Below the pieces are notes generated by a model, which searched no databases, had not been told where the DNA came from, and saw only the letters and a program-made list of their open reading frames with translations. 64,000 bases of DNA from a virus: IMG/VR virus record IMGVR_UViG_3300023242_000006, positions 5,476-69,475 of that record. One strand, written 5' to 3'. A program made the position numbers and the translations under genes. This document shows positions 44,497-63,872 of this stretch, in pieces. Positions within the stretch are counted from its first letter, which is position 1. Each line of letters opens with the position of its first letter.

Positions 44497-45021
44497 TTAA
44501 TGTCTATGTGCTGGAACTAAATTAATTTTAAAACTCGTTAATCGACCAGCTTTAACCAACTTATCACCAAATTCTTGAAATATTGGGATATGCTCCTTAC
44601 GGTCATCCCAAGCTTCTAATTCATTTACGTTAGCATATTTTTCTAACAATGATTCCATTGTTTTTATTTTAGCAACATCAGTACTACCACCTCTGTTGAA
44701 ATGGTACTCATCGAATATTAACCCTTTTGCGTCTAAGATTTTCTTTACCAAGTCACCTAGCTTCACTATTCGACCAGTCAACATAACCATACATGTGTTT
44801 GCGTTAACTTTCTCTTTCTTATATGCTGAAGTAACCATTGGCACCGTTGGCATATCAAAGATATCCATATCTAAGCTGAAAGGTTGTCCCCACCATCCAG
44901 GGAAAGGCCAAACCTTTCCAGTTTTTTCTTGGTATTCTTTTTTACCAAATTCTGGAAGAGGTGTCATTAATAAAGTGCCGTCAAAATCGAAAACAGCTAG
45001 TCTAGTTATTTTTTTTTCCAT
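44497..45021 (-). CDS. HAD-superfamily hydrolase
   Basis: Motif I VFDFDGTL. Confidence 0.6.
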   Translation of the reverse strand: MEKKITRLAVFDFDGTLLMTPLPEFGKKEYQEKTGKVWPFPGWWGQPFSLDMDIFDMPTVPMVTSAYKKEKVNANTCMVMLTGRIVKLGDLVKKILDAKGLIFDEYHFNRGGSTDVAKIKTMESLLEKYANVNELEAWDDRKEHIPIFQEFGDKLVKAGRLTSFKINLVPAHRH

Positions 45022-45025
45022 AATA

Positions 45026-45712
45026 TTAGTTTTTATATTTCCAAATGTATTTATAAGCGTGTTTTGTTTTATTTCTTAAATTTGCACTAATGTTTTTTCT
45101 AGACAACCCAAGTTCATTCTCAACATCTTGTGCACTTTTCCATTCTTTAATAAAATTGTTATTTAAATCGTATTGTAAAATAGGTTTTTTAATACTTTCA
45201 GCATTATTTTTAACCCATTCTTCAGATTTAATTATTTTTTTACCTCTAAGGTTATCAATAGCTTTCTGGTGAGCTAAAGTTTTACCAGTTTTTTTTCTAT
45301 TTTCAGAAATTAATTTTTTTGTTTCTTCTGAATGTGGGTTATAAACTCTATTTTTATTCGCTTCTCTTATTTTTTGTTTACGTTCCTCTGAATAAATAAC
45401 ACCAAAACCACCATCACCACCTAATGTTAAATTCATTCCGTTTTCATTATTACCATGAAAAGAATTATATTCATTTATATAATTGATTTCAATTTCATTT
45501 ATTTCATTTAACGAATGTTCACCTTCGTATATAACATCAAAACTATGACCGCTAAAACCATATTTTAATAATGAGTAATATATTAATGGTTGTTTTTTAC
45601 ATTTTAAACGTCTATAATAATCAAGTCTTAATTTTAAATTACTCGTTTTACCGATATAAATTCTACCAGATGGCGAAACTATTTTATAAATTTGACAAAT
45701 CTTTTTTTCCAT
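45026..45712 (-). CDS. GIY-YIG homing endonuclease (Seg/I-TevI-like) with NUMOD-type DNA-binding modules
   Basis: IYKIVSPSGRIYIGKTSNLKLRLDYY (GIY..YIG), repeated ..H.EETKKLISE.. and ..HQKAIDNLRG.., and a C-terminal HTH. Confidence 0.75.
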   Translation of the reverse strand: MEKKICQIYKIVSPSGRIYIGKTSNLKLRLDYYRRLKCKKQPLIYYSLLKYGFSGHSFDVIYEGEHSLNEINEIEINYINEYNSFHGNNENGMNLTLGGDGGFGVIYSEERKQKIREANKNRVYNPHSEETKKLISENRKKTGKTLAHQKAIDNLRGKKIIKSEEWVKNNAESIKKPILQYDLNNNFIKEWKSAQDVENELGLSRKNISANLRNKTKHAYKYIWKYKN

Positions 45713-46827: not shown

Positions 46828-47322
46828 TTATTTAGATGGTTTTGGTTTAATCGTGGCGAACATTTTTTTACCTTCTAACTTAGGCATAGCCTCTGGGCTA
46901 CCATATTCTTCAACTGCAAGTATCGTCTTAAGAATTTGTTCTTGACCAATGTCAATATGTTGCATTTGTCGACCTCTAAATTGAAGACTAACTTTAATCC
47001 TATGGCCTTTTTGTAAAAACTCAACCATGTGTTTGATTCTGTAGTTCAAATCATTCTCAGATGTGTTAGGTCCTAGTTTGATTTCTTTCATGTCAAGTGT
47101 TTTGTTCTTAGGTTTTTTACTTTGTTCGTATATAAACTTTTCATAATTCATTACACGACAAACAGGTGGTTGAGCTTTTTCGTTAATCATAACCAAATCA
47201 AGTTCTTTTGATTTGGCTAATTTAATGGCATCAGCTAATGCCATTATTCCCTCATCAATAATACGCAATTCACTTGCTGTTATCTCTGAATTAAGTTTAT
47301 GTTCTATTATTTTTTTACGCAT
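46828..47322 (-). CDS. infC: Translation initiation factor IF-3
   Basis: ELRIIDEGIMALADAIKLAKSKELDLVMINEKAQPPVCRVMNYEKFIYEQSKK...LQFRGRQMQH aligns along the full length with bacterial IF-3. Confidence 0.8.
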   Translation of the reverse strand: MRKKIIEHKLNSEITASELRIIDEGIMALADAIKLAKSKELDLVMINEKAQPPVCRVMNYEKFIYEQSKKPKNKTLDMKEIKLGPNTSENDLNYRIKHMVEFLQKGHRIKVSLQFRGRQMQHIDIGQEQILKTILAVEEYGSPEAMPKLEGKKMFATIKPKPSK

Positions 47323-47707
47323 TAATTGCTTTGATTAATTCTTCAAACGATTCAACCTGTTTAACATCGTACTTTTCACATACAATATCAACATTGCCTT
47401 TCCTCCAGAAACCTTCTGGACATAAAACGATTAGTTTACCACCTTTGGCGTGTAACCCCAATTCCAACAATGAGATTGGTGACTTCGTATTAGGGTCGAA
47501 GTACATCAAAATGATGTCTGCCATGTCTAACGCTTTCAATTCCCAAGATACTTGTTCATTGAATTGTTTATTCTCAATTTTTTGCTCCCATGAGCTGTCC
47601 CAATCATCTCTTCTTGGGTTTAAAAACGTGTAACCTTTATAAGATAACTCGTCTACTATTCTTTTTTGCCAATTCTCAGCTTTACCCATTTCGATTGACC
47701 CAGCCAA
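47315..47707 (-). CDS. Nucleoside 2-deoxyribosyltransferase-like protein
   Basis: About 130 aa with the conserved LELG.H..GK..I...PEG Rossmann-like core typical of the family. Confidence 0.5.
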   Translation of the reverse strand: MAGSIEMGKAENWQKRIVDELSYKGYTFLNPRRDDWDSSWEQKIENKQFNEQVSWELKALDMADIILMYFDPNTKSPISLLELGLHAKGGKLIVLCPEGFWRKGNVDIVCEKYDVKQVESFEELIKAINA

Positions 47708-48250: not shown

Positions 48251-49423
48251 TTACCCACCAGAGATACAATCATTTTCACCATCATCGTCATTTATTTTAT
48301 CATTGTAAGTTATTTTATCAATGATATTTTTAGTAAAGTTAGCAACACCTTTTTTAGGTTTATTAACCACAGCACTACCATAACCATCGTAAGCATAAGC
48401 ATAGTTAACTATGTCAGCATCTTCTATTTTAATGAATAGTGGTTCTTCAAAACCTAATTTTTCACCTTTTTTATCTTCAAAAGGTTCAATCTCAATTGTT
48501 GAGAAATTAATAACACGACTAATAGTACCTATTGATTGACCATCAATCTCAAACCTATAACCTTGGTTATTCTCACTGTACATAGGTCTAGGGTATACGT
48601 TAACACCGCTAGCTATTTCAACCATCTCACCATTTTTATCTCTCATTGTAACATTGTGTTTACCTTTAATTTTTTTAACATTAAAGATAGATTCAAATAC
48701 CGATGGAGTTTCTTCATGAATATTAACCTCGCTGATGATTGCTTTAACAATATCAACAGTAATCGTTTCCAAATTAGAAATGAAATTGACGCATTCTTTT
48801 TTAAATTGTGTGTGAATCAATAAATCATTTACTATTTCTTCGACAACTTCTGGCTTCAAATCCTCGAATTTTTTAAGGTAACGGATACGTCCTGGTCTTT
48901 GTATAAGATTTTTTTCTATATACAACTCATTTGTAGTCAATAAGAATACTCTTCTAAACTCAGAATTTAACGCACCATCCATGATTGTTAACATCGTAGA
49001 TGAATCACCAAATATCTTCTCATACTCATCTATAAATATAGTTATATTTTGAGAAATTGAGTTTAAGAATGTATGGATTCCTTGAATGTTTGATTCTACT
49101 AGGATAGTTGGTTGGTTTAATTGTGTTGCGATAACTTTCGAAGAAACAGTTTTACCAGTACCTTTTAAACCATTTAACAAAATACCCAAATTATTATTCG
49201 TCGCACTATATGTTTTGATGATTCGGTTAATCAAATCACTCTCCAAACCATATAATTTGTAGTCGAATGTGAAACCATCACTATGTTTAACCAAATAAAA
49301 ACGTCCATATTCGTCTACACCTACTGTATAGATAGCGTTTTCTAATTTTTCAAATTCTTGCGATGGATGAGTAAGGTAAAGTTTTTTACCATCAGCATTC
49401 CATACTTTTTTTACGTCTCCCAT
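48251..49423 (-). CDS. P-loop ATPase (Walker A GLKGTGKT, Walker B IFIDEYE)
   Basis: Motifs read directly. Confidence 0.6.
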   Translation of the reverse strand: MGDVKKVWNADGKKLYLTHPSQEFEKLENAIYTVGVDEYGRFYLVKHSDGFTFDYKLYGLESDLINRIIKTYSATNNNLGILLNGLKGTGKTVSSKVIATQLNQPTILVESNIQGIHTFLNSISQNITIFIDEYEKIFGDSSTMLTIMDGALNSEFRRVFLLTTNELYIEKNLIQRPGRIRYLKKFEDLKPEVVEEIVNDLLIHTQFKKECVNFISNLETITVDIVKAIISEVNIHEETPSVFESIFNVKKIKGKHNVTMRDKNGEMVEIASGVNVYPRPMYSENNQGYRFEIDGQSIGTISRVINFSTIEIEPFEDKKGEKLGFEEPLFIKIEDADIVNYAYAYDGYGSAVVNKPKKGVANFTKNIIDKITYNDKINDDDGENDCISGG

Positions 49424-49569: not shown

Positions 49570-50457
49570 TTAGCACAATTTGTCACTAATTTTTTCATTA
49601 TATCTAATAATAATTAAATTAATATTTTTGCTTTTACAATAATCTTTTTTAATTTTATCGTTAATTTGTTGTTGTTTAAATTTTATTATTCCACCAAAAT
49701 AATTAACTGGTTTGTAATGTTGAATACCGTTGAATTCAATACATATATTATAATCTGGTAAATAAAAATCAAATGGTAATAAATTAATATTTTTACAATC
49801 AGGAAATTTATATTGTCGTAAATATTTTATTTTTTTATTTTCTAATATATCTTTAATTTCAATTTCACCTTTTGATTCATTACATAAAGGACAACCATGT
49901 TTTCTGTTGATATGATGGTCTGGAGATTGTTCAAACTCACCATGCTCTGGACATATTATTTTAACCTTAATTTTATTATTTCTATAATTAACTTTTGAAT
50001 AATCATATTTATTATTATGTATTTTATCACCCTCTTCTATAAATGTTTCAATATTTTTATTATTATAAGTACAGTAAGTACAACCATGACCCTTTAAATG
50101 ATTACTTGGTGTTTGCTTGAATTCACCGTGGATTGAACAAATTATCTTTATTTCATTATGTGAACTGATATAATTAATATTTTTATAATCGAATTTATTA
50201 CCATGTATTTTAATCGCATCAAAAATAAATTTCTCGTTATTTTTAGTTAATTTATTTTTCATCTCTTCTCTTCCACATAATAAACAGCCTTTACCTTGTA
50301 TATGTGATTTTGGAGTCTGTTTAAATTCTCCATGTATCGGACAAATTATAACAACTTTTTGTGTTTGATTAATATAATCGACTAAACTATATTCATATTT
50401 ATTTGAATGTTTATTATTAGCTTTAATTTTAAAATTCTCTGTATTTGATGTACTCAT
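49570..50457 (-). CDS. Putative homing endonuclease: three zinc-ribbon repeats plus a C-terminal PD-(D/E)XK (Vsr/DUF559-like) nuclease domain
   Basis: Same KYDYS..IICPIHGEF.Q.P..H..G.GC..C repeats as 31308..32258. C-terminus FDFYLPDYNICIEFNGIQHY. Confidence 0.6.
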   Translation of the reverse strand: MSTSNTENFKIKANNKHSNKYEYSLVDYINQTQKVVIICPIHGEFKQTPKSHIQGKGCLLCGREEMKNKLTKNNEKFIFDAIKIHGNKFDYKNINYISSHNEIKIICSIHGEFKQTPSNHLKGHGCTYCTYNNKNIETFIEEGDKIHNNKYDYSKVNYRNNKIKVKIICPEHGEFEQSPDHHINRKHGCPLCNESKGEIEIKDILENKKIKYLRQYKFPDCKNINLLPFDFYLPDYNICIEFNGIQHYKPVNYFGGIIKFKQQQINDKIKKDYCKSKNINLIIIRYNEKISDKLC

Positions 50458-50778: not shown

Positions 50779-50996
50779 TACAAATCAAAACTAAGACTAC
50801 CACCTGTGTCATTAAAAAAATTGTTCGGTATTAACCCATGTTCAGCTAGACAAGAAATAACTATTTGTTTCATCATATATGAATTACCCGTAATCAAGGT
50901 TGCGTTAGAAGTGTTATTTTGAATACATAACCAAATAAACTCATCAACTGTCTTAACAACATCTTCGTGTTTTACACCATGCAAATCTAAAGTCAT
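50778..50996 (-). CDS. Smr domain protein
   Basis: LDLHGVKHEDVVKTVDEFI.....ATLITGNS. Confidence 0.6.
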   Translation of the reverse strand: MTLDLHGVKHEDVVKTVDEFIWLCIQNNTSNATLITGNSYMMKQIVISCLAEHGLIPNNFFNDTGGSLSFDL

Positions 50997-51469
50997 TTAT
51001 TTATTGTTTCTAAAATTTTATCTATACAAGCAACTTGTGTTTCATGAAGTAAGTCTCTAGCTTCATCTAAAGTAACCCATTTATAACCATCCATTTCTGG
51101 AAAACCACCTCGTTCAGCTGGAACGTTAGAATTACATTTAAGTTCTTGCTCACCCCAATTAAATTTTGAGTCCCTTTTTTCTAAGTACAAAAAAGGATAA
51201 ACAATTTTTTTCTTATGTCCGTAATTAACACCTAGCATTGGAAAAATATCAAAATCAGTAGAACCAGATAAATCTAGGTTTGTTTCCTCATACGTTTCAC
51301 GCAAGGCTCCTTCTAAGAATGTTTCATTTTCTTCAACCTTACCCTTTGGAATACTCCAAAAATTAGGTTTATGGTTTGTCGGGTGTGCTATTAATAATTG
51401 TTTATTTTTTCTTACAATAAACAAACCAGCAGCTATCGTTTTCATCATTTTAAATGATTTTAGTACCAA
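50993..51469 (-). CDS. NUDIX hydrolase
   Basis: Nudix box GKVEENETFLEGALRETYEETNL. Confidence 0.75.
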   Translation of the reverse strand: MVLKSFKMMKTIAAGLFIVRKNKQLLIAHPTNHKPNFWSIPKGKVEENETFLEGALRETYEETNLDLSGSTDFDIFPMLGVNYGHKKKIVYPFLYLEKRDSKFNWGEQELKCNSNVPAERGGFPEMDGYKWVTLDEARDLLHETQVACIDKILETINK

Positions 51470-51940: not shown

Positions 51941-52372
51941 TTATACATTTATTAAATTCATTTTAGTTAATATTTCTTCTACTTTAACCCAGTCAACAAA
52001 TGGTCTAGGTGAAATTGCAAGGTCTATCTTCAAAGGGCAACCTAAAGCACTATCATCAATCATTAATGGAGCGTAGCTTTTAGGTGATGTTGTCCAATTC
52101 AATTGAGTTGGATTCTTTTGAATTCCATATAGAGGAATGTCATTAGTTTTAAACCAATTAATTGCATCGGTTAAACCATGGTTATCTGTGGTACCATCTA
52201 ATCTATCAAAATTACTACCATCACTTCTCATCGTGAAAAGAATAAGTCTATGACCATTCTCAACTAATTTTTTTAAAACAGTAATTGCACCTATATCATA
52301 ACCAACTCTAGGGTAATCATGCGTAACAACAGTTCCGTCAAAATACAAGTTAATTTCAATTGTATTTTTCAT
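51941..52372 (-). CDS. HAD-like phosphatase (divergent motif I)
   Basis: NLYFDGTVVTHDYP. It shares a fold signature with 56821..57252 and 57254..57817. Confidence 0.4.
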   Translation of the reverse strand: MKNTIEINLYFDGTVVTHDYPRVGYDIGAITVLKKLVENGHRLILFTMRSDGSNFDRLDGTTDNHGLTDAINWFKTNDIPLYGIQKNPTQLNWTTSPKSYAPLMIDDSALGCPLKIDLAISPRPFVDWVKVEEILTKMNLINV

Positions 52373-52417: not shown

Positions 52418-52648
52418 ATTAAAATTACCTTTTGATTTCTATTTACCAGATTTTAATATTTGTATTGAATTTAACGGGATTCAACATTATAAAGTAGTTG
52501 AACATTTTGGTGGGGTTCAAGGGTTTAATTCTAGGAAAATTAATGATAAAATAAAAAGGGAATATTGTTTACTAAACAATATTCCACTTATTATTATTAA
52601 ATATAATGACAATGTTGGTGATAAATTAACTTATTCAAAAGTAGTATA
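52418..52648 (+). pseudogene. C-terminal remnant of a PD-(D/E)XK homing endonuclease domain
   Basis: The plus frame reads LPFDFYLPDFNICIEFNGIQHYKVVEHFGGVQGF..IIIKYND. It matches the C-terminus of 49570..50457 and has no N-terminal part. Confidence 0.55.
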
Positions 52649-54244
52649 ACCCAACTTACCGTCTTTATCTAGCATAAAATTTATGTGTTGGGCTCGACCA
52701 TCTGTGTGGATAATAACATGTGATTGTAACCATGAGCTGGCACCTCTGTTATAACCCACCCTTAATTTTGTACTAGTACCAACAGCCAATGCTCCGTCCT
52801 TTCTACCAGGCGAGTGATAATGACCAACCACAATTTTAGTATTTAATTTTCTAAATTGTAATAACGAACCTCGACTACCATTTGAACCTATGTCACCATG
52901 TTGACCTAATTCCCAATCTTTAACCCGATAAGAAGCGCTTCGACCCAACGTAATAAACTTAGGAAACTTCTGGTTGATGATACTTGGAATTACTCCTTTG
53001 ACATTATAAGGGTCGTTAGAGTATTGCTCTAACAACATATCAGACATTTTCATGTAAAGTCTAGAATTTTTGTACGTTGGTTGTTTCTTCCAATCTTCAT
53101 TCTTAAGCCAACGGTCTAAGAAATCATCATGATTACTTCTGACAATAACCACGTTATCAAACTTTTCAAATGCTTTTAACGATTCTAACATAAAATCAAC
53201 CTCTTTACCTAAGTCATTAGTGCCAGATATTTCTTTACCATACTGAATGAAAGGGTCTTTAATCTCATGATGGGTAATTGAAGACCCATCAAATACGTCA
53301 TGTAATATAACGTGTTGTGGTTTTACTCTTTCAAATAAACTAAGTGTTGTATCTAAAACGTCTTGGTCATGATGTCCATAGTGAATATCACCTAATATAG
53401 CAGCAGCGAATTTAGTTACTTCACTTACCTCACCTTTTTCAACTCGATAATATAAATCAGTAAAATTACCTGTTTTATCATCAGCGGTTACTTGTCTAAC
53501 GAAAAATGTGTCATCATTTTTAATCTCAACAATAACGAATCCAAATGTATGGTGGAACTCGCCAGTTTTACCAGCTTTAGAATCAGTATAATTCTTTTTA
53601 GTTACAGCACCAGTAGTGGTCATCATTTTAGGTTTGTTACCTTCTAATACTGAAATCATTTCTAACTGAACCTTTGGGCTACCAAACACGCATGAATTAA
53701 TACCACTCAACGCTTGTAAACCAGTCATAGGGTTCACAGCCGTTGGTTGAATCTTAATATCTGACATAATCGATACGTACTTATGTATATCATGTCTGTT
53801 AGCATCTAGGTATGGTAATACCTCTGAAACCCAAAATTCTGATTCTTCTTGTTGATTTGTCCACATACTAGTAGGGTTTCTATACCTACCAGCTATGATA
53901 TGAATATCAGCAGCGATAAATTCAGCATAAGCTTCTAAGTTTTTCATCAAACCAGTATGAACAGGCGTATTGTTCTGAGCCCAACTTATAATAAAACGTT
54001 TTTTAGTCCCGTCATGGACTCTTGTTTTGGCTTTTACATACTGTTCTGGTTCAATTTCAACTTTTTCTTTGAAGTTTAATTTTTTAAACCATTTTCTAAC
54101 GGTTCTCTCTGATAACCCTAAGTCATTACCAATTTTAATTGCTAATTTCTCAACTGTTAAATTATTTTCTAACCTATTAACATATTCTAACCTAAATTTC
54201 TCAATTTCAATTTCAGTTAAATCTTTAAATTTAATTTTTACCAT
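52631..54244 (-). CDS. Calcineurin-like metallophosphoesterase with N-terminal HTH region
   Basis: GDIHYGHHD, HDVFDG, RSNHDD, GHYH motifs. N-terminus LSERTVRKWFKK. Confidence 0.65.
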   Translation of the reverse strand: MVKIKFKDLTEIEIEKFRLEYVNRLENNLTVEKLAIKIGNDLGLSERTVRKWFKKLNFKEKVEIEPEQYVKAKTRVHDGTKKRFIISWAQNNTPVHTGLMKNLEAYAEFIAADIHIIAGRYRNPTSMWTNQQEESEFWVSEVLPYLDANRHDIHKYVSIMSDIKIQPTAVNPMTGLQALSGINSCVFGSPKVQLEMISVLEGNKPKMMTTTGAVTKKNYTDSKAGKTGEFHHTFGFVIVEIKNDDTFFVRQVTADDKTGNFTDLYYRVEKGEVSEVTKFAAAILGDIHYGHHDQDVLDTTLSLFERVKPQHVILHDVFDGSSITHHEIKDPFIQYGKEISGTNDLGKEVDFMLESLKAFEKFDNVVIVRSNHDDFLDRWLKNEDWKKQPTYKNSRLYMKMSDMLLEQYSNDPYNVKGVIPSIINQKFPKFITLGRSASYRVKDWELGQHGDIGSNGSRGSLLQFRKLNTKIVVGHYHSPGRKDGALAVGTSTKLRVGYNRGASSWLQSHVIIHTDGRAQHINFMLDKDGKLGYTTFE

Positions 54245-54914: not shown

Positions 54915-55298
54915 TTATTTTTTTACATAAGAATCCAATAATACTTGGACCCGTTTATTATCTTTTTTAGCTTTAGCTTGTTCTTTCTCAACCCTACTAT
55001 CTATATACTCACAAATAGCTATCGCCCTTAAATTGTTATAAAATTTACCATTATGTTCGTTTCCTTTAACCACAAAAGCAACTGTTACTACTTCATTAAG
55101 GCTAAATCTTTCTAATGTTTCAACGTTTTCATTAATAAATTCTAACTTAACAATCTCTGGGTATTGTTCTTCTGTTTTTACAACAAATTCTCTCTTTTTA
55201 AAGTTACCAAATTCCTGTATCTCTCCAATTTGTTTAATTGTACCATCTAAAAAATAATGCATATATTTAATTTTGTTCGTTAATAATTCTTTCCACAA
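54915..55298 (-). CDS. Hypothetical protein
   Basis: ORF of 127 aa. Confidence 0.45.
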   Translation of the reverse strand: MWKELLTNKIKYMHYFLDGTIKQIGEIQEFGNFKKREFVVKTEEQYPEIVKLEFINENVETLERFSLNEVVTVAFVVKGNEHNGKFYNNLRAIAICEYIDSRVEKEQAKAKKDNKRVQVLLDSYVKK

Positions 55299-55995
55299 TT
55301 TCTGTCACCCCTTCAACAGCACTTTTCTCTACGTACTCAATGTTTAAATCAAGTGTGTCTAAATCATGACTAGGGTTAGGGTCAACGTATATTACGTTAA
55401 AACCTTTCGGTAGGTTATCAAAAAAACTTAAGGTATAACCAATTTGTAAACTAGTTCCAACAATTATTACAATATCAGCTGTTAAAAAAGCATCATAAGC
55501 TTTATTTACATCAAAAGGATATTCACCAAACCATACAATGTGTGGTCTTAATTGTGCACCATACTTCTCGCATTTATCACCAATATTAATATCAGAATAA
55601 CCAATGTCAATAGAATCTAACTTAACTTTTAAAAGATTACCAGTTAAATAAGAACTCCTAGCTTTAGTTAACTCACCATGCAAGTGAATGATGTTAGTAG
55701 ACCCACCTCTTTCGTGCAAATCATCAACATTTTGTGTAACGATAGTTACATCAAAGTCTTCTTCTAACCTAGCCAATGCTTTATGTGCATTGTTAGGTTC
55801 AACACTTGGCATTTGTCTTCTGCGGTCATTGTAAAAGTTAAGTACTTTCTCACGGTCTTTTCTCCAACCATCAAGAGTACAAACTTCTTCAATCTTATGG
55901 TTTTCCCAAAGGCCATCTACCAAATCTCTGAATGTATCAACACCAGATTCTTTGCTTATTCCAGCACCTGTAAATATAACTACTTTCTTTTTCAT
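55267..55995 (-). CDS. Sir2-family NAD+-dependent deacylase or ADP-ribosyltransferase (no Zn-ribbon Cys4)
   Basis: GAGISKESGVDTFRD, TQNVDDLHERGG, catalytic LHGEL. Confidence 0.75.
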   Translation of the reverse strand: MKKKVVIFTGAGISKESGVDTFRDLVDGLWENHKIEEVCTLDGWRKDREKVLNFYNDRRRQMPSVEPNNAHKALARLEEDFDVTIVTQNVDDLHERGGSTNIIHLHGELTKARSSYLTGNLLKVKLDSIDIGYSDINIGDKCEKYGAQLRPHIVWFGEYPFDVNKAYDAFLTADIVIIVGTSLQIGYTLSFFDNLPKGFNVIYVDPNPSHDLDTLDLNIEYVEKSAVEGVTEIVERIINEQN

Positions 55996-56297
55996 TACTT
56001 CTGAACAGCCGATTTAACCCCAAGAATCATGTTTTTGATAACTTTAACCATTAAAAAAAACCCACCGATGAAACCGAAGTCATACCACCCACCGTTATTA
56101 TTAACAGCATAGATAGCTACATCATTCCAGATAAGACTACCAATAAATGATGGTAGCATAATCATACCATGCCAAGTACCACCCCAAAAGCCATATACAT
56201 GCTCACTAGGATTCATATATTGGATTTGTGAAACATCAGCACATCCAGTCATTAATAATAGCGTAAAAGCCGCTAAAACGTAAATTAAATTTTTCAT
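55995..56297 (-). CDS. Membrane lipoprotein
   Basis: Lipobox LLMTGCADV plus TM segments. Confidence 0.45.
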   Translation of the reverse strand: MKNLIYVLAAFTLLLMTGCADVSQIQYMNPSEHVYGFWGGTWHGMIMLPSFIGSLIWNDVAIYAVNNNGGWYDFGFIGGFFLMVKVIKNMILGVKSAVQK

Positions 56298-56474
56298 TTT
56301 GTAATATTAAAAGTTAAATTTTTATAAATTTTAATTTGGTTGCTAAGATAATGTCTAACATGACCACCATCACATAAAACCACACACCAGATATCGTTTT
56401 CAAATGTTCCACCATTTGAAACATAAATAGCATAACCCTCTTTGTCTTCTTCAACAATCACTGGTATTGGGTTT

Positions 56475-56828
56475 TTAAATTCTAGCATCGTGTTTCATTT
56501 CTAATTTTTTATTAATTCTTCGGTCAACTTCACCTTCAATGATTCTATTAGTACAATTTGAAATTATTTTCTCAGTAATACCGTTTATCTTATCATCAAT
56601 GTGTCTTGACATACCATTTTCGATTTGTTTTAGCTTAAAATCTAAACGGTCTTTTAATTTTATTTTATCTTGTTCAGTGATACCATCAACGAAAAAATCT
56701 ATTTCTGTCTTTAGGTAATCAACCATAATAGCTTTCAAATCATCTGCTGACATCAAAACAGTTTCACCATTAACCGTTTTTATTTTTATACAATCTTTTC
56801 GACTATCGTTGAAAGATAAATTAACCAT
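56475..56828 (-). CDS. Hypothetical protein
   Basis: ORF of 117 aa. Confidence 0.4.
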   Translation of the reverse strand: MVNLSFNDSRKDCIKIKTVNGETVLMSADDLKAIMVDYLKTEIDFFVDGITEQDKIKLKDRLDFKLKQIENGMSRHIDDKINGITEKIISNCTNRIIEGEVDRRINKKLEMKHDARI

Positions 56829-57252
56829 AATGTTTAGTTAATAAATTATAAACCTCTGACCAATCAGTGGTTGGGTCAAAACCAGCTTTATCTTCAAACA
56901 AAACATTCATATAAGGTTTTTTATCGTAATTCCCATAACCATCTGGTTGAGTAGGTACCTCTGGATTATCGTTGACATACTTGAATAGAATATCATTAGC
57001 TTTGAATAAAGCTAAATACTCATTGACTTCATGTGGGTGAGAACATGTATATAAAAACATAACAACATCTGGCAACTTGCTAATTAATTGCAAAGTTTCT
57101 TTCGCCATAGGGTAAAACTCATCTGTAGTGTTACGAACGTAGTTAGGTTTAAGTATGGTACCATGGATATCAAACGCCCAAAAAGTTCTATCCCAGTTTC
57201 TAGAAATCATATACCCGAAATGATTTACATTTATTGATTTTATTATACTCAC
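56821..57252 (-). CDS. HAD-like phosphatase family protein (divergent)
   Basis: WAFDIHGTIL motif I-like. Confidence 0.4.
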   Translation of the reverse strand: MSIIKSINVNHFGYMISRNWDRTFWAFDIHGTILKPNYVRNTTDEFYPMAKETLQLISKLPDVVMFLYTCSHPHEVNEYLALFKANDILFKYVNDNPEVPTQPDGYGNYDKKPYMNVLFEDKAGFDPTTDWSEVYNLLTKHYG

Positions 57253-57253
57253 A

Positions 57254-57817
57254 TTATTTATTTAAAAAACTAATTACTTTCTCTTTAATACCTATTTGTT
57301 TGATACCCTCATTAATTCTAGGTGTGATAACAAAATTTTTAACACCCCATGTTCCTCTCCAACTTATATCTAAGTCATCAACAGCAACCCAATTTGTTAT
57401 TTGTTCGTTATCTTTAACATATTGGTTAATCTCTAAAGAACGTTCTTGCTCATAACGAAAAGACATATCCCACTGAAAACCGTCTGGTTTATAAGTACCG
57501 ATAAAACTTTTTGTCGTGGCTATTGGTTTCTTAATTATCCCTTGTTCTATGTAGTATTCACTTAATTCTTCTAATGTCCCATGTTTCTTCCAATCGGAAG
57601 AAACAACTATCTCAGCACCAGTTTCTTCTAATATTTGATTTAAAACCTTAACAGCTTTTGCGTCAAAATCATCAAACCTAACCGAAGCTGGTGCATGACA
57701 AAGAAATTTAGATGATTCTGGATTAGTAGAACAATATTTTACCCACTTCTTATTACGACACCCCCAATTATTGGATAGACATATTACACCATCATTATCT
57801 AAGAATATTACTTTCAT
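57254..57817 (-). CDS. HAD-like phosphatase
   Basis: IFLDNDGVI, VSSDWK, AVDDLD, which correspond to motifs I-III. Confidence 0.5.
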   Translation of the reverse strand: MKVIFLDNDGVICLSNNWGCRNKKWVKYCSTNPESSKFLCHAPASVRFDDFDAKAVKVLNQILEETGAEIVVSSDWKKHGTLEELSEYYIEQGIIKKPIATTKSFIGTYKPDGFQWDMSFRYEQERSLEINQYVKDNEQITNWVAVDDLDISWRGTWGVKNFVITPRINEGIKQIGIKEKVISFLNK

Positions 57818-57960
57818 ACTACAAAGGTACTAAAAGATTTTGATAAATAAAATGTTTTGGTGGAATAATTTTTTTTGGTTCATTTATTCTGATAAAAACC
57901 AGTCTTTTTCAAAATATCTAGATATTTATAAAAGTAAGAATACCATTGGTTGGGAGGTAA

Positions 57961-58416
57961 TTACTCTGTAGGTTTATACCTTACAATAGTAACACATTCT
58001 CCTCTAAAAATTTCATCTATCATAGGTAAAATTATTTTTTCATCACCCCCAGCAAGCCCACAACCAATAAGTGGCATACCAAAAAGTAAACCAGTAAATT
58101 TATTTTTCATTTCTCTTAACGCAGAACGTAAAGCATCATAATCTAAATCCATTTGACCATTTCGTCTTCCAGTATAGTCATATTGACCATACAAATTAAC
58201 AATTATAGGTTTTGTGTTTTCGGTATAGGTAATTGTACCTAATTTATCTCTATCACCTTTTATTGTTTCACAATCAGCTTCATAAGCTTCTGGAAATTTA
58301 CTTTTAATTTGTGGGGCTATACCAGCACCCATAGTACAAAAACAGTTACAGCAATGAGCTATAACATCAAATAATTCGGCATCTCTTACTAAGTCACCAT
58401 CAATGTATTTTATCAT
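57961..58416 (-). CDS. Macro domain protein (ADP-ribose / O-acetyl-ADP-ribose binding or hydrolase)
   Basis: DVIAHCCNCFCTMGAGIAPQI and IGCGLAGGD. Confidence 0.7.
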   Translation of the reverse strand: MIKYIDGDLVRDAELFDVIAHCCNCFCTMGAGIAPQIKSKFPEAYEADCETIKGDRDKLGTITYTENTKPIIVNLYGQYDYTGRRNGQMDLDYDALRSALREMKNKFTGLLFGMPLIGCGLAGGDEKIILPMIDEIFRGECVTIVRYKPTE

Positions 58417-58421
58417 AATTT

Positions 58422-58955
58422 TTATTGTTTTAAAGTTTCTCTTACTCGCATAATAGCTTCACCTAACCAGTTTTTACCTTGCCATTTGCTCTTATCTTCA
58501 ATATTTCGGTGTTCAACACCCATTCCAATCCCCCAGATTTTATCGTAAGGGCTTGCTTCAACAATTTCTCTATCTTCAGTTGCTAACAATGATGTTTTGA
58601 AACTTATATTCTGTGTAAACTTGGCCAAGTTACCTTGATAAACAAATTCTCTACATACTCCATTCCATCTATTTGTATCGAAATTTTTAACACTACGACC
58701 CAAAGCTTTTTGTTCTTTTGGGTTTGTAGTATTCATAATAGTTTCATATACTTCCATATCTTTGAAATATAAAGCTTTTTGGGCCATCATGTATTGTTCA
58801 CAACTAGTGTAAGTGATTCCAGCAATGACAAACTTTGATGGATGCCATTGACTATAAATCCCATTCCAAAAGAATACAAACTCGTCTGTTATTGTAACGT
58901 CTTTTGTTCCCATAATTAAACTTTTGCTCGTTCTCTCACTTCTTCGAATGTCCAT
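58422..58955 (-). CDS. NADAR (YbiA/DUF1768) domain protein
   Basis: FFW...SQW.PS.F.I.G..YTSCEQYMMAQKALYF.D......I.....P.EQKALGR.V.NFD...W......V...GN.AKF.QN......LL.T....IVEASPYDKIWGIG. Confidence 0.7.
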   Translation of the reverse strand: MDIRRSERTSKSLIMGTKDVTITDEFVFFWNGIYSQWHPSKFVIAGITYTSCEQYMMAQKALYFKDMEVYETIMNTTNPKEQKALGRSVKNFDTNRWNGVCREFVYQGNLAKFTQNISFKTSLLATEDREIVEASPYDKIWGIGMGVEHRNIEDKSKWQGKNWLGEAIMRVRETLKQ

Positions 58956-59937
58956 TCTTTAGTGATTATACCGTTTCTGAACACTTCTACCAACTCATCT
59001 GTAACATCGTTGAACTCAGAATCCATTGAAGTAACTGTTCTAAACGTACCATCGTCATTCTTAACCAATTTAAGTAACCCTTGTTTTGATTTCTTGAATG
59101 ATTTTGTGATGTTACCATTAGCATCCATCTCAGTTGGAGATTTGATGATATTCTTTTCTTCACCATTGACAATAGCATAACATGCTTTGGTTGCAAAGTT
59201 TTGCGTATCACGGTTGATATCGGCTTGTAATAATTTGCCACCCATACCTAAAGCTAAGTTTTCTGGTGATATTTTTTGTTCCTCTAACAATGCATAGATT
59301 TCTTTGATTGAATCTAGATTAACACCATCACCTTGAATCACACGAACTTGTGGTGGTAACACTTTATAACCCTTATCGTTTACTGTGTAACCGAATTTGT
59401 CGAATAATATAGTGAAAATTTCTTTCAATGTCATTAACACGTCACCAGAATCTGGACGGATAACTAGTTGATTTCCTGGTTCTGATGGGCGAGATAGTAC
59501 TAAGTCTCTCAATTCAGTTCCCCAATACTCAGAACATGCACGAAAGATATTGTATGAATCAGATACACACGCAACTAACCCAGTAGGGAATGTTGTAAGT
59601 ACTCGTTTCATCATTTCCAATTCACCTTCTTCACCTTTAAGTGTCATGATAGAGTGTTCAGTTGCTGGGATAGATAACCCATAAACCGTTTCTGTATTGT
59701 AGTAATCTCTGATGTATTTAGATGCCATGATTGTGTCAGACCCTCTAAAGTTTACCAAGTGAGCAGAGCCACCGATACCAGCTGATTGTACAGACGATAC
59801 ACCACGGAAACCGAAGTCATTCAACACGTAATCAACCAGAAACTCTCTTAACCCAGTATCATATGATGTGTTTTTTTGAAAACTACTATCTACTATTTTA
59901 CGAACTTCTCTCGAAAGTGTAGCAACCGTAATCGGGT
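58916..59937 (-). CDS. nadV: Nicotinamide phosphoribosyltransferase NadV/NAMPT, exon 2
   Basis: ...YPITVATLSREVRKI...VLNDFGFRGVSSVQSAGIGGSAHLVNFRGSDT... The frame is open upstream of the track ATG and reads back to a splice-like boundary. Confidence 0.7.
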
Positions 59938-60856
59938 CGTGATGTTCGTATAGGTTCGTTAATCCCTATACCGTTCTCTTATGAACTGCTACATTTTTCA
60001 ATGTAGACCAGACTATATCAACATCTTATAAATAAGATGGTATCCATTTCCACTCACTTGAGTGTACGTCTTTCGACTAGTCGTTGAACTTTTTTAATCT
60101 TTATTTTGATAAGTATAAATTCTAGTTATGTGAGAAATAAACTCTTCTGTCGTCATGGTACTTTTTGAATTATTACAAAACTTACAACAACTAACACAAT
60201 TATCAACAGAATAACCAATAGAGTTATTTACTCTATCAACACCATTAACTCTAAATGGAGAAGTATCCATTTTTTTTCGTTTAGTGCCTTTCCATCCCAT
60301 ATGTGGTTCTAAACCACAATAATGACAATTACCATCTAGTAATTTATAACATTCCTCAGTAGTTAACTTAAAAAAGTAATTTCTTCTTGTTGCTGCTTTT
60401 AAATAATTTCTAAAAATTTCATGTTTAAGACCTTCAAAATTTGGTTTTGATTGCCTTTCAACTATTTTTTCTTTCATTAAACAACCACATGATGCGTGTC
60501 TACCGTTTTTTAAAAGATTACTTCTAGCTATTGTGGTATTACCACAATCACATTTACAAAGGTAACCTTTTTCTCTACTGTGATGCTCAATAACTGTTAA
60601 CCTATTGAACTTTTTACCTATCATTTTCTCTTTTGCTTTCATATGTTACAACATTAATTATAATAATAAATATATAACTATTTCACAAAAGACATTAAAA
60701 ATTAAACTTAGCTGCTGATTTTCCAATCTCTTACCTTTTCAAACATTCACGATTGATGTTACCATCTGCGTTGTAGTGTTAAGAGCTCTAAGGACGTTCC
60801 AGCAATTAGAATACTTTCGATATGGTGTCACCACCATAAAGGGCTATATTAATCTA
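59938..60856 (-). mobile_element. Group I-like intron (about 919 nt) interrupting nadV, carrying an HNH endonuclease ORF
   Basis: On the RNA strand exon 1 ends ..GUAUGGU and the intron ends ..CAUCACG (terminal G) before ACCCGAUU. Splicing restores VWY-PITV, which is conserved in NAMPT. Confidence 0.65.
60094..60642 (-). CDS. Intron-encoded HNH endonuclease
   Basis: C..C pairs and C-terminal GVDRVNNSIGYSVDNCVSCCKFCNNSK. Confidence 0.7.
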   Translation of the reverse strand: MKAKEKMIGKKFNRLTVIEHHSREKGYLCKCDCGNTTIARSNLLKNGRHASCGCLMKEKIVERQSKPNFEGLKHEIFRNYLKAATRRNYFFKLTTEECYKLLDGNCHYCGLEPHMGWKGTKRKKMDTSPFRVNGVDRVNNSIGYSVDNCVSCCKFCNNSKSTMTTEEFISHITRIYTYQNKD

Positions 60857-61394
60857 ACCATACTTGCAACAAGATAGTTTCTAAAAAGTTAGTTAACCAT
60901 GCACAGTTCTCATCTAAAGATTCGATAACGAACAAAACATTTTTGGTTCCAACTACATTTCCTTCTGGAACTGCTTTGATGCTGATAGGTAATTTACCAT
61001 CATACATCTCGATAATATAATCGAATTTTGTTCTATCGAATACATCGTCACGACCAAACACACCGTGCTTTGTACCTAAATATTCAAATGCTTCATCAAC
61101 CTCTTCTTTCGTAATGGCAACACCTTCTAAGTATTGTTTTAAAAAGATTTGTAACCCGTAGAATACTGTCTCAGAGAATTTACCACCTCTTGATTCCAAG
61201 TAAGATACCATCTTAGTCATTTCACTACCATAGAATCTGTGATGTGAATATTTGTAAGCATCTGAACACAAAATCAAGTTGTTTGGTTTTGTTAACGCTT
61301 TACTGAGATATTTTTGAATACCTTCAATAGATACCCAATCTTTGTTTTCTATCGCAGTTTTTAATTTTTCAGCTATTTTTTTTTGTAAACTCAT
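60857..61394 (-). CDS. nadV: Nicotinamide phosphoribosyltransferase NadV/NAMPT, exon 1
   Basis: ..LCSDAYKYSHHRFYG... is the NAMPT N-terminus. The track ORF ends LQVWLD* just inside the intron. Confidence 0.7.
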
Positions 61395-61415
61395 GTTTTT
61401 GTTCTTTATTTAATG

Positions 61416-62414
61416 TTATTCACCAGTGTAAGTTACATTATCAATTCTTTCAACTAATCTTTCACCAATATTTGGTATAAGTTTTTCATCGTAAACTTTG
61501 TTAACCAAAGCCAACATCATTTCACGGTGTTCTGGCATTACTTTGGTTCTAACCGTATCAAAGTTACTGAACTCTCTAATTGGAATCCATTTAACATCTG
61601 CGATATCATCACTAGCTTTTGCGTAACCCATATTTTTGCGACCCAAGAATAACGTAGTCATTATCCCAGATTCTTCTTTGGCATATCTCCAATCTTTTAC
61701 TCTATGACTTAAGATATATTTTAAGTCGCTGATAACACAATTACCACCAGTTTCTTCACGAAACTCTCTCAAAGCTGCTTTTTCATAGCTTTCATCTGTC
61801 GGGTCAACAAATCCACCAACGAATCTCCAATACTTCTCGTTAGGTTTTCTACCCATAAGAATCTCACCTTCATCGTTGTATGCACAGATATCAACTGTTG
61901 GATAAGAGACTGGTCTTTGATTAAATGCTGAGTAGATAACACCAGACCTAAAATCAGTAGAGTCAAGAGTTTCTTTAGCGACATCTGCTCTAATGTTTGT
62001 AGCGTTATGGTTAAAGCTAGCTTCTAATTCAATAACTTGAAATTTGCCTTTGTAATGAGGAATGAACGAATCACGGCTACCATAAATAACTGTTTTCTTT
62101 TCACCAAACGGCATAGAAATAGCTGAATCAATTTCTGAACTCCATTTTTCATCGTATCTTTGGTCCATTACTGGTAAAATCATTAAACTAGGAAACGATT
62201 TTTGAATCATAGCTTTACGACTAGCAAAATCCAAAGGGTTTTTCTTGGTGTTTTGTACTCTAGACACACCTAGGATAAGTACAGTTTTTTTATGATTTGA
62301 AAGGACGTGGTTAATCAAGTCAATATGTCCTTTATGTAATCGGTTTGTTTGAAATCGCCCTATAACAACCCCAACTTCAAAATCCGTTGGTTCTATGTTT
62401 TTTTTAATGTCCAT
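61416..62414 (-). CDS. Bifunctional NMN adenylyltransferase / Nudix hydrolase (NatV/NadM-Nudix-like)
   Basis: N-terminus GRFQ..HKGH (nucleotidyltransferase H-x-G-H). C-terminal Nudix box GGFVDPTDESYEKAALREFREETGG. Start trimmed to MDIKK, downstream of the promoter motif at 62438. Confidence 0.75.
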   Translation of the reverse strand: MDIKKNIEPTDFEVGVVIGRFQTNRLHKGHIDLINHVLSNHKKTVLILGVSRVQNTKKNPLDFASRKAMIQKSFPSLMILPVMDQRYDEKWSSEIDSAISMPFGEKKTVIYGSRDSFIPHYKGKFQVIELEASFNHNATNIRADVAKETLDSTDFRSGVIYSAFNQRPVSYPTVDICAYNDEGEILMGRKPNEKYWRFVGGFVDPTDESYEKAALREFREETGGNCVISDLKYILSHRVKDWRYAKEESGIMTTLFLGRKNMGYAKASDDIADVKWIPIREFSNFDTVRTKVMPEHREMMLALVNKVYDEKLIPNIGERLVERIDNVTYTGE

Positions 62415-62486
62415 ATTTGATTTTATTTTTATAGTACAAAGGTACAAAAAAAAATGCAGATAAAACAAATTATCTAAAAGTTTTTT

Positions 62487-63872
62487 TTATTTAACTTGAA
62501 AACCCATTGTTTGTTTCTCTTTTTCCACTTGGCTTGAATAAAACCCTTTGTAAGATTCATTAATTAAACTAACAGTATCATCAATACCCCATTCAGCATC
62601 ATCCTCAGACATCTCTTTAATGTTATCAGCTAAATTTGCTATGAAAGCACCTGTGATGTTAACTTTTTTACCGTTTATTTTACCAGAAAGCGCATTGTAC
62701 ACTTCTTGAACCTTCCATTGTTCTGGTAAATGAATCTTACATACTTTGATTATTTGTTCGTCATCTAAGAAACTATAATCTAACGTGAAGTTAAAACGTC
62801 CAGGTCTCTCAGCCGCTTTATCCACTAACCCTTTGTCATTGGTGGAAGCCAATAAACTTATTTTTCTTTTCTTAACTCCATCGAAGAACGATAAAAATTG
62901 ACCTAACAAACGAGTGTAGCTACCATTATCTCTTGAACCTAAGTACAAGTCAATATCATCCATTATAATTACAGCGTTTTCGAATATCTCACACCCTTCC
63001 ATGATTGACGTTAAGTCTTCAGAGTTACCGAAGTCTGGAATAATAAATGTTACATTAGGAATAAGCTTTCTAGCAATCTCACGAATTGATTCCGTTTTTC
63101 CAGTTCCTGGTTCACCATTAAGTAAGTATCTTGCATTACCACCTCTAGCCACACGTGTTACAAAGTGTTCTATAAATTTCATTTGAACATCATTAAGAAC
63201 AAGTTCGTTACTAGCAGCTTCGATATCAATGATTTCAATACCTTTAAAACGACCCTCTCTTAATTTAACTTTGATACATTTACCTTTGTATTCAGATTCA
63301 TTAAAAGCAAGAGTTTTAATTTTCTTAATCAATTTCGAAAAATCGTTATGGTCAATACCTTTTTTAGAAGTTAAATGAAATTGATTATTCAATTCATTTC
63401 GACCATCTAAAAACATTTTTGTTTGAAAGATATAATCGTTTTCATCATCTTCTAACTTACAAATAAACCAGTAAGAACCTGTAACTTCGAAATTACCTCC
63501 AAACTCTACTCTACCAATATTATCGCTAGTACCGTAACCATTTACAACCATACCACTTTGTTTACCTTTCATCACTGAATGTAAATAAGCGTTGATAATT
63601 GCAAATTCAATAAAACTAACTTCTTCAGTGTATGAATTAGTTAAGTACGGTTCATCATCATCATCATCATCATCATATGTTTTGTTCGAAAACGAATCAT
63701 TTGGTACCCCAAAAGTTTCAACCTCAGTTGATAATATAGCAACCTCTTCCAAAGTTTCTACATCTATTTTTGGTAAAAGACTAACTAAATCTTCTAGACT
63801 TTTAGTTAGTCTAATTTCACGCTTTTGATTTGAATTTGTCACTTCAACCTTCTTTTTTTTCTTTTCGTACAT
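62487..63872 (-). CDS. AAA+ ATPase with poly-Asp N-terminal region
   Basis: Walker A GEPGTGKT, Walker B IIMDDIDL, and a DDDDDDE run. Confidence 0.65.
   Translation of the reverse strand: MYEKKKKKVEVTNSNQKREIRLTKSLEDLVSLLPKIDVETLEEVAILSTEVETFGVPNDSFSNKTYDDDDDDDEPYLTNSYTEEVSFIEFAIINAYLHSVMKGKQSGMVVNGYGTSDNIGRVEFGGNFEVTGSYWFICKLEDDENDYIFQTKMFLDGRNELNNQFHLTSKKGIDHNDFSKLIKKIKTLAFNESEYKGKCIKVKLREGRFKGIEIIDIEAASNELVLNDVQMKFIEHFVTRVARGGNARYLLNGEPGTGKTESIREIARKLIPNVTFIIPDFGNSEDLTSIMEGCEIFENAVIIMDDIDLYLGSRDNGSYTRLLGQFLSFFDGVKKRKISLLASTNDKGLVDKAAERPGRFNFTLDYSFLDDEQIIKVCKIHLPEQWKVQEVYNALSGKINGKKVNITGAFIANLADNIKEMSEDDAEWGIDDTVSLINESYKGFYSSQVEKEKQTMGFQVK

Follow-up and report, generated by a model that had tools for sequence, protein, structure and literature searches.

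We analysed a 64,000-nucleotide stretch of DNA (the window) from IMG/VR record IMGVR_UViG_3300023242_000006, which comes from an uncultured large phage, and found that its segment 55267-63872, a run of minus-strand open reading frames (ORFs), is organized around a nadV-natV gene pair for the salvage of nicotinamide adenine dinucleotide (NAD+). We hold with high confidence that this core is an operon of the NAD+ reconstitution pathway NARP2. Genes for a Sir2-family protein, a Macro domain, a NADAR domain, two HAD-fold proteins and an AAA+ ATPase surround it, and we consider it probable (about 0.62) that the NARP2-type operon and its ADP-ribose-processing neighbours together provide the phage with an NAD+ economy early in infection. 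The block is a known anti-defence system in extended form; neither the type of system nor the principle is new. Its predicted features are the following.

55267-55995, minus strand: Sir2 (Pfam SIR2, 1.3e-38)
55995-56297, minus strand: predicted lipoprotein (lipobox LMTG/C; phrog_30702, 2.2e-24)
56294-56488, minus strand: 64-residue ORF without Pfam or PHROG match
56475-56828, minus strand: 117-residue ORF without Pfam or PHROG match
56821-57252, minus strand: HADa, a BT0820-type capless HAD-fold protein (motif I, D-I-H-G-T)
57254-57817, minus strand: HAD_SAK_2 phosphatase (Pfam, 1e-19)
57961-58416, minus strand: Macro (Pfam Macro, 1.2e-7; phrog_335, 3.8e-53)
58422-58955, minus strand: NADAR (Pfam NADAR, 6e-52)
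58916-59937, minus strand: exon 2 of the nicotinamide phosphoribosyltransferase NAMPT (NadV), residues 180-519 (NAPRTase, 8.5e-42, from ORF 58916-59827)
59938-60856, minus strand: predicted group I intron, 919 nucleotides (Rfam Intron_gpI, 30.6 bits), whose excision restores the frame
60094-60642, minus strand: HNH ORF of the intron (PHROG endonuclease VII and HNH endonuclease, 1.6e-18 and 7.7e-15)
60857-61394, minus strand: NAMPT exon 1, residues 1-179 and the first base of codon 180 (NAMPT_N, 6.2e-28, from ORF 60849-61394)
61416-62468, minus strand: NatV (Pfam CTP_transf_like and NUDIX)
62487-63872, minus strand: AAA+ ATPase (Pfam AAA, 1e-14)

Domains were assigned from Pfam, PHROGs, NCBIfam and PDB sequence matches, the Pfam scan taking window ORFs of at least 120 residues; negative Pfam results given below for the window refer to that set of scanned ORFs. 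A sequence-only reading of the window had called Sir2, two HAD, Macro, NADAR, NAMPT, NMNAT-Nudix and AAA domains here, and the Pfam searches, with which PHROGs agreed, bore out all of these calls. Its description of the segment as eight consecutive minus-strand genes was right as to strand but not as to contiguity, since three small ORFs and the HNH ORF of the intron intervene.

The split nadV gene that had been proposed was recovered by joining 61394..60857 to 59937..58916, which gave an uninterrupted NAMPT of 519 residues. This spliced protein aligned with human NAMPT (PDB 6tac) over residues 37-518 (E 1.9e-122) and combines the features of the NAMPT clade, namely an NAMPT_N domain, the NAPRTase TIM barrel and the catalytic residues; His239 (SAHLVNF), Asp220 (DFGFRG) and the RPDSG motif were invariant among phage NAMPT homologues (alignment A1). 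The last base of the 5' exon is U and that of the intron is G, and excision across TGGT/...CACG/ACCC restores W-Y-P-I-T-V. Most relatives have an uninterrupted gene, and five intron-less ones read ...LLQVW/YPITVAT across the same junction. The Rfam scan at gathering threshold returned no intron match in the window; a focused E-value search of 1.5 kb was needed to see it, giving E 1.5e-5 and 30.6 bits, short of the gathering score of 50. In this alignment the P7-P9 core aligned well, and a second fragment (60672-60804) reached only 13.4 bits. The HNH ORF at 60094-60642 had no Pfam match and was placed by PHROG families only. Because excision restores the frame, the borders are U and G, an HNH ORF and a sub-threshold Rfam match are present and intron-less relatives exist, the 919-nucleotide insert is, as judged from its sequence, a real intron, probably of group I. 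Its core (~60009-60104) has short counterparts of 82-93% identity in Staphylococcus and Vibrio phage genomes, a few of which lie under lysin/cell-wall-hydrolase genes, and besides these ~90 nucleotides the phage collection contained no near-identical DNA. We found no publication on an intron in a phage NAMPT gene within a literature coverage that was incomplete.

Two relatives, of which L024 (IMG/VR 3300037294_000399) is the closest to the window and the other is L026, carry a different, HNH-containing insert after NAMPT residue 145. The existence of two distinct inserts means that the NAMPT gene was invaded at least twice. Behind the insert in L024 (8596-12785) come a homing-endonuclease-like gene that stands free and a second copy of the NAMPT 3' part (residues 423-519, 96% identical to the window), an arrangement suggestive of past gene conversion driven by an endonuclease.

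Next to nadV, both domains of the 61416-62468 product aligned to the Francisella NadM-Nudix protein (2qjt, E 2.8e-14), and an HxGH-type motif (GRFQ..HKGH) and a Nudix box (REFREETG) could be read from the sequence. Translation of natV probably begins at the ATG at 62414. Matches to the NCBIfam bifunctional NMNAT/Nudix models were below their cut-offs. We assign this gene as encoding a predicted NatV-like protein, a nicotinamide mononucleotide (NMN) adenylyltransferase of NadM type joined to an ADP-ribose pyrophosphatase. The analogy with the NadV/NatV pair of Vibrio phage KVP40 was right, the NAMPT and NMNAT-Nudix pair being identified by profile and by structure-sequence matches.

NARP2 is made up of NadV and NatV. 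With the KVP40 pair, Thoeris and DSR2 defence is abolished and the NAD+ level goes up, the latter also in defence-free cells; about 1% of phages carry NARP2 (bioRxiv 10.1101/2024.02.11.579819). The proposal that the island restores NAD+ against NAD+-depleting defences thus stands for the NadV/NatV pair, for which it is the published and tested function (bioRxiv 10.1101/2024.02.11.579819). The same KVP40 pair also cancels the RES-based aRES defence. The window has the sequence features of NARP2: an NAMPT, an adjoining phage NMNAT and no Adps among its scanned ORFs. It shares with KVP40 (Lee et al. 2017; Osterman et al. 2024) an NAMPT next to a NadM-type NMNAT-Nudix protein, with the same two predicted reactions, and the NatV-then-NAMPT order found in most phage loci examined. 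The differences are that the window NAMPT is only ~38% identical to the KVP40-type protein (that of ValKK3), that its gene is interrupted by an intron, and that the pair lies inside a conserved block, whereas in KVP40 and ValKK3 none of the accessory families of the window occurs within ~5-10 kb of nadV and Sir2 is encoded elsewhere.

NARP2 is regarded as costly, as it drains phosphoribosyl pyrophosphate (PRPP). A Pfam search of the window for a PRPP synthetase or Adps (Pribosyl_synth/Pribosyltran) found neither. Since the phage region encodes no PRPP synthetase, the conversion of ribose-5-phosphate to PRPP must be a host step, and the island alone cannot rebuild NAD+ from ADP-ribose products. 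The statement that it carries every activity needed for this was accordingly overstated by one step, the ribose-5-phosphate to PRPP conversion having no gene in the island.

The setting of the pair was compared among uncultured phages by scanning IMG/VR with the spliced NAMPT (27 loci) and with a profile (80 loci), followed by homology mapping of the neighbouring genes. Loci were collapsed at 90% NAMPT identity and divided into a near lineage, with NAMPT at least 60% identical to that of the window (23 clusters), and a distant set below 60% (48 clusters); accessory genes were counted within 3 kb of NatV/NAMPT. The lineage shows the order AAA-NatV-NAMPT-(NADAR)-Macro-(HAD_SAK_2)-HADa-(orf)-lipoprotein-Sir2-(DUF3127)-orf54551-...-A1-like, on contigs of up to 368 kb, and this order was kept at identities of 64-89% for NAMPT, ~50% for NatV and 54-68% for Sir2. 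NatV adjoined NAMPT in 22 of the 23 near clusters, and HADa was present in 19, which makes the latter the accessory gene kept most consistently beside the pair. Sir2 and the upstream AAA followed with 15/23 each, Macro with 13/23, NADAR with 11/23 and HAD_SAK_2 with 9/23. Reduced relatives (L040, L041 and L044) retain NatV-NAMPT-HADa-Sir2. In two further loci, L150 (6404-8122) and L117 (391-2139), a homologue of ~575 residues that is 27% identical occupies the NAMPT slot, with NatV, Macro, HADa and Sir2 remaining around it; another phosphoribosyltransferase may here have taken the place of NAMPT by non-orthologous displacement.

Among the 48 distant clusters, NatV adjoined NAMPT in 38, and counts for the other genes were a Macro of the same family in 10, a homologue of the second AAA of the window (48251-49423) in 7 and NADAR in 1. 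A separate clade related to Synechococcus phage B23, with NAMPT ~44% identical to that of the window, usually has the Macro gene between NatV and NAMPT. In B23 itself it is a NADAR gene that lies between the two, and the NADAR of L070 likewise adjoins or intervenes. In the B23-like clade the second-AAA homologue follows directly after NAMPT (L065, L075, L088 and L098). The block was not found around NAMPT in seven cultured phages (MD18, B23, ValKK3, RsoM2USA, Vibrio 1.081.O, BUCT-ZZ01 and ACP17), and except for the B23 NADAR none of the window accessory families was near their NAMPT. The best NAMPT matches among huge-phage records, LR756504 and LR756502, had NatV and NAMPT only, with no accessory genes nearby; in LR756502, Sir2 is 200 kb from NAMPT.

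These comparisons yielded three new observations. Synteny of the block extends over a diverged lineage of large phages that are uncultured; a Macro gene of the same family lies between NatV and NAMPT, independently, in another phage clade; and it is in the window lineage alone that Sir2 and the BT0820-like HAD remain linked to the pathway. The combination of genes had been taken to be undescribed, which does not hold for several of its parts. Passages of the survey by Iyer et al. (2022, PMC9503650) place NADAR in neighbourhoods with NadV and NadM, report that Macro, NADAR and Nudix co-occur above chance in large phages, and link a phage sirtuin clade to a SAK-HAD phosphatase and calcineurin-like phosphoesterases, with predicted RNA repair as the function. 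A Macro protein has been published within NARP1, and recycling of NAD+ through Sir2/CobB, NAMPT and NMNAT was proposed for KVP40-like phages in 2016, with vibriophage expression data (PMC5107563). What appears to be new is the whole block AAA-NatV-NAMPT-(NADAR)-Macro-(HAD)-HAD-lipoprotein-Sir2. The passages of the Iyer et al. survey drawn on here, which cover sequenced isolates, describe no block of Sir2, Macro, NADAR, HADs and NadV/NatV (PMC9503650), and we found no publication on Macro inside NARP2 operons, literature coverage again being incomplete.

The Macro protein (57961-58416) falls in phrog_335, a widespread phage 'phosphatase' family, and its PDB matches were BT1257 (2fg1, 1e-9), TARG1 (4e-8) and Poa1p (1.8e-4), with SCO6735 also near. 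Its motif IGCGLAGG has Ala at the position of the catalytic Asp of TARG1 (D125, GCGLD), as in BT1257; for the catalytic Lys region the alignment with TARG1 was unreliable. Its score with the DarG NCBIfam model was 33.8 bits, compared with a cut-off of 250. Because of the Ala at the Asp position a mechanism of DarG/TARG1 type is unlikely, and a TARG1/DarG-like reading of the protein was ruled out. The closest precedent for its position is NARP1-AP (Adps-Adpp-Namat), in which a Poa1p-like Macro ADP-ribose-1''-phosphate phosphatase (Adpp) extends NARP1 and which accounts for 15% of NARP1 operons (bioRxiv 10.64898/2026.01.28.702374). Both cases have a stand-alone, Poa1p-related phage 'phosphatase' Macro in or next to an NAD+ reconstitution operon. 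In the window this operon is of NARP2 and not NARP1 type, Adps is absent, and the similarity to Poa1p is weak, the closest structures being BT1257 and TARG1. NARP2 does not use ADP-ribose, and the Macro protein therefore cannot be an obligatory step of it.

The NADAR protein, translation of which probably begins at the ATG at 58913, scored 161.8 bits with TIGR02464 (cut-off 73.7) and 19.4 bits with Phage_30_3, the family of T4 gp30.3 (cut-off 36); in the PDB it matched 8bau (4.9e-14) and YbiA (2b3w, 1.3e-7). By these profile scores it belongs to the YbiA-like branch, outside the T4 gp30.3/DarG1-like branch.

Both HAD genes encode proteins with the Rossmannoid fold of the HAD superfamily. HADa (56821-57252) has a conserved motif I, D28-I-H30-G-T32, in which His replaces the second Asp of D-x-D-x-T; HAD_SAK_2 (57254-57817) has a canonical D-N-D-G-V and belongs to the 'Swiss-army-knife RNA repair' type 2 family. 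Of the two small ORFs beside them, the one at 56475-56828 has homologues at the same position in many lineage members and the one at 56294-56488 in the closest relatives only (L024, L034 and L035).

The Sir2 protein matched E. coli CobB (1s5p/6rxj) with E 1.3e-47 and is 30-35% identical to phage sirtuins of T5, V5 and KVP40 type, so that it stands nearer to cellular CobB than to the T5/V5-type phage sirtuins treated by Iyer et al. The catalytic H106, GAG/ESG, TQN (TQNVD) and F-Y55-N-D-R58 were invariant (alignment A2). The last of these, aligned to fYnaRR of CobB, keeps the Y-x-x-R motif for acidic acyl groups. These elements are shared with CobB; the window protein differs from it in being phage-encoded, in following a lipoprotein gene and in its zinc-binding cluster, which is mostly lost, a single Cys (DKCE) aligning with CobB and the first CobB Cys being Ser. 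Its scores were under all NCBIfam CobB/deacylase equivalog cut-offs. From its motifs and closest matches we classify the protein as a CobB-like class III sirtuin. A SirTM reading was rejected, since there is no direct coupling to Macro (five ORFs and ~2 kb lie between them) and the closest relatives are of CobB type. The lipoprotein gene at 55995-56297, the stop of which overlaps the Sir2 start, lies directly upstream of Sir2 throughout the lineage, and its Cys and a C-terminal Gly-rich region are conserved.

At the other end of the block, the AAA protein (62487-63872) has a classic single AAA domain of Cdc48/p97 type behind an acidic N-terminal stretch, and its best PDB relatives were Cdc48/p97 D-domains (E 4e-16). 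For the AAA ATPases of the window, PDB, NCBIfam and tblastn returned only generic AAA/Cdc48-like or 'ATPase' labels. In the lineage the gene keeps its place next to NatV, on the upstream side, and its membership in the NAD+ pathway, for which this synteny is the evidence, is unproven.

Further features of the window bear on how the block is interpreted.

10849-11232, minus strand: homing-endonuclease-type gene, HNH
17360-17929, minus strand: ART-PolyVal ADP-ribosyltransferase (Pfam, 1.6e-20), a second NAD+ consumer, 38 kb from the island
25137-28295, minus strand: DUF4874 and DUF4832 protein of 1052 residues with a C-terminal Por_Secre_tail (4.9e-10; type IX secretion sorting)
30434-30886, minus strand: SmpB (2.2e-52)
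31308-32258, plus strand: homing-endonuclease-type gene, T5orf172
32397-32471: tRNA-Ile, anticodon AAT
35127-35225 and 35505-35602, minus strand: tRNA-like genes (42-44 bits)
39850-41877, minus strand: RNase R/II (RNB, 2e-108)
44497-45021, minus strand, as the block: HAD_SAK_1
45026-45712, minus strand: homing-endonuclease-type gene, GIY-YIG and NUMOD
46828-47322, minus strand: IF3
47315-47707, minus strand: DrHyd-like, nucleoside 2-deoxyribosyltransferase-like protein (Pfam Nuc_deoxyri_tr2, 6.3e-35)
48251-49423, minus strand: second AAA ATPase (phrog_2376), without PDB relative, 6 kb below the island
49570-50457, minus strand: homing-endonuclease-type gene, HNH/phrog_559, with copies scattered at differing positions in relatives
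50993-51469, minus strand: stand-alone Nudix hydrolase (Pfam NUDIX, 5.4e-16), syntenic in relatives
51941-52372, minus strand: second BT0820-type HAD (NCBIfam BT0820, 1.1e-14, below cut-off; phrog_1238, 6.7e-28)
52631-54244, minus strand: T5 A1-like metallophosphoesterase of 537 residues (phrog_1745 'DNA transfer protein', 7.7e-151)

The two BT0820-like HAD genes flank the T5 A1-like gene, which recalls the T5 pre-early region. A DrHyd-like gene lies between NAMPT/NADAR and Macro in L106, L109 and L110. A DUF3127/SSB-like gene is on the strand of the block, outside 55267-63872, and the window also encodes a sigma factor. Because the 1052-residue phage protein carries a type IX secretion sorting domain, the host is probably a member of the Bacteroidota, and the protein itself may be secreted or exposed at the surface. 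SmpB and RNase R act together in trans-translation, and a tmRNA was not among the ARAGORN predictions for the window. Of the tRNA-like genes, 35127-35225 has a 39-nucleotide insert in the anticodon arm and 35505-35602 (98 nucleotides) was classed by ARAGORN as a tRNA of undetermined type having a 4-base anticodon; the two may be intron-containing tRNAs.

In the mechanism that we favour, NadV, expressed after self-splicing of the group I intron, would convert nicotinamide and PRPP to NMN, and the NadM-type domain of NatV would adenylylate NMN to NAD+. Cleavage of ADP-ribose to adenosine monophosphate (AMP) and ribose-5-phosphate would fall to the Nudix domain of the same protein, and the host would convert the ribose-5-phosphate to PRPP. 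The Macro protein may turn ADP-ribose-1''-phosphate or O-acyl-ADP-ribose, its likely substrates, into ADP-ribose; the NADAR protein would be a YbiA-like N-glycosidase, and it and the two HAD-fold phosphatases might also act on ADP-ribose derivatives. The CobB-like sirtuin would consume NAD+ and release nicotinamide and O-acyl-ADP-ribose. In such a scheme NAD+ would be rebuilt whatever the NAD+ consumers of host or phage do, and ADP-ribose by-products, including non-canonical ones made by defences, would be brought to ADP-ribose and then to AMP and ribose-5-phosphate for re-use. The presence of another NAD+ consumer in the window, ART-PolyVal, favours this scheme. So does the position of the one strong terminator-like hairpin between 50.5 and 64 kb, which lies downstream of the block (52559-52585). 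That the accessory genes process ADP-ribose by-products feeding the NAD+ cycle is the most likely interpretation of their domains, and recurrence in other clades backs it for Macro and weakly for NADAR.

Several results weigh against so coherent a picture. The promoter scan, with 68 sites compared with a shuffled expectation of 66, was at chance level, so that a single operon is not demonstrated and co-transcription is inferred. Genes unrelated to NAD+ (the DUF3127 SSB-like gene, the T5 A1-like gene and small ORFs of no family) are equally syntenic, so that lineage conservation by itself cannot tell function from descent. Many relatives do without NADAR and HAD_SAK_2. Neither Sir2 nor HADa occurred beside NAMPT in any of the 48 distant clusters, and a Sir2-seeded scan placed NAMPT near Sir2 in 3 of ~45 loci outside the lineage. 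A link of Sir2, the HADs and the AAA to the salvage pair is thus backed by synteny in one lineage and is unproven, as shared descent alone could explain their clustering. The match of Macro to Poa1p (6lfu, E 1.8e-4) is weak and covers residues 2-87 only, and the NADAR protein is of the YbiA/riboflavin-type branch. Macro and NADAR are, moreover, very common in large phages (2772 phage records have a Macro homologue), so their co-occurrence in a genome says little and only adjacency counts. Finally, NARP2 needs no ADP-ribose input, so that NAD+ synthesis does not depend on the helpers.

The results just listed could also be accounted for if the neighbours were independent early genes serving separate purposes in an inherited order, which we regard as rather unlikely. 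The NADAR protein would then be AdfN-like and would clear phage DNA of the ADP-ribose that DarT1 attaches to guanine; Macro would scavenge, in a general role, ADP-ribose-1''-phosphate that arises in RNA repair or RES-type defence; Sir2 and HAD_SAK_2 would be a sirtuin-centred RNA-end repair pair as in Iyer et al.; and the BT0820-like HADs with the T5 A1-like protein a T5-style host-takeover or nucleotide phosphatase set. All three diverse phage NADARs tested neutralize DarTG1 and remove ADP-ribose from guanine in DNA (PMC11825919), and the window protein shares with AdfN the stand-alone phage NADAR architecture; it lies in the YbiA/TIGR02464 branch, however, and below the T4 gp30.3 family cut-off, and any activity of it on DNA is putative. 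The RNA-repair function of sirtuin with SAK-HAD is a published prediction, as parts of that survey state (PMC9503650), but in the window Sir2 and HAD_SAK_2 are 1.3 kb and four ORFs apart, HAD_SAK_2 is missing from 14 of the 23 lineage clusters including the closest relative L024, and RNA ligase, 2H, KptA and cREC were not found by Pfam. The match of 52631-54244 to phrog_1745, the synteny in relatives of the region down to 51 kb with its non-NAD genes, the separation of Sir2 and HADa from NAMPT in distant clades and the distance of the KVP40 Sir2 from nadV/natV all fit independent genes. On the other side, Macro (10/48 distant clusters) and NADAR (B23 and L070) recur beside or between NatV and NAMPT, the NatV-NAMPT-HADa-Sir2 set outlasts reduction, and NatV, HADa and Sir2 outlast replacement of NAMPT by a distant homologue.

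A further possibility, first put forward for KVP40-like phages and to our mind doubtful to a similar degree, is that the block boosts metabolism instead of countering defence, supplying NAD+ for the phage sirtuin, ART-PolyVal and general metabolism in a large-genome infection; NadV would recycle the nicotinamide that Sir2 or the ART sets free. This would agree with the rise in NAD+ that NARP2 causes without any defence system, with the recycling idea and vibriophage expression data of 2016 (PMC5107563), with the presence of both Sir2 and ART-PolyVal in the window and with the deacylase-type catalytic His and Y-x-x-R that Sir2 retains. The anti-defence effect of NARP2 is, however, experimentally established, and most NatV/NAMPT loci have no Sir2 nearby. 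Metabolic boosting and counter-defence are compatible with each other.

An extended NARP2 would go further than the NAD+ economy that we favour: Macro, NADAR and the D-x-H HAD would process non-canonical products of NAD+ breakdown to ADP-ribose and from there to ribose-5-phosphate, with RES-type ADP-ribose-1''-phosphate, cyclic ADP-ribose signals and O-acyl-ADP-ribose from the phage sirtuin as candidate substrates. We think this form unlikely at present. If it were true, the phage would run a closed NAD+ cycle with a lower PRPP cost, defence signals would be destroyed, and the sirtuin would be the NAD+-dependent effector of the phage, fuelled by the pathway.

It is highly improbable that the phosphoribosyltransferase is instead Namat, the NARP1-type enzyme that uses ADP-ribose pyrophosphate: although Namat is homologous to NAMPT (both are mixed in the 2019 phage records that matched the NAMPT query by tblastn) and an association with Macro has so far been described for NARP1, the reading was ruled out by the lack of an Adps/Prs-like gene among the scanned ORFs of the window, by the adjoining NMNAT, which NARP1 would not need, and by the strong end-to-end match to human NAMPT (the published 36% for Namat and human NAMPT being an identity, and so a different measure from our E value).

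Few strategies of bacteria against phages are as common as NAD+ depletion, and the reconstitution of NAD+ by phages is a young and active field. That NARP2 occurs with Macro in two independent clades points to salvage or detoxification of ADP-ribose derivatives as a further activity of phages beside NARP2, in which case Macro with NARP2 would parallel NARP1-AP. The Macro (57961-58416), NADAR (58422-58955) and D-x-H HAD (56821-57252) genes are clonable candidates for activity against RES-, TIR- and DarT-type defences, and the block extends NAD+ reconstitution pathways to probable Bacteroidota phages.

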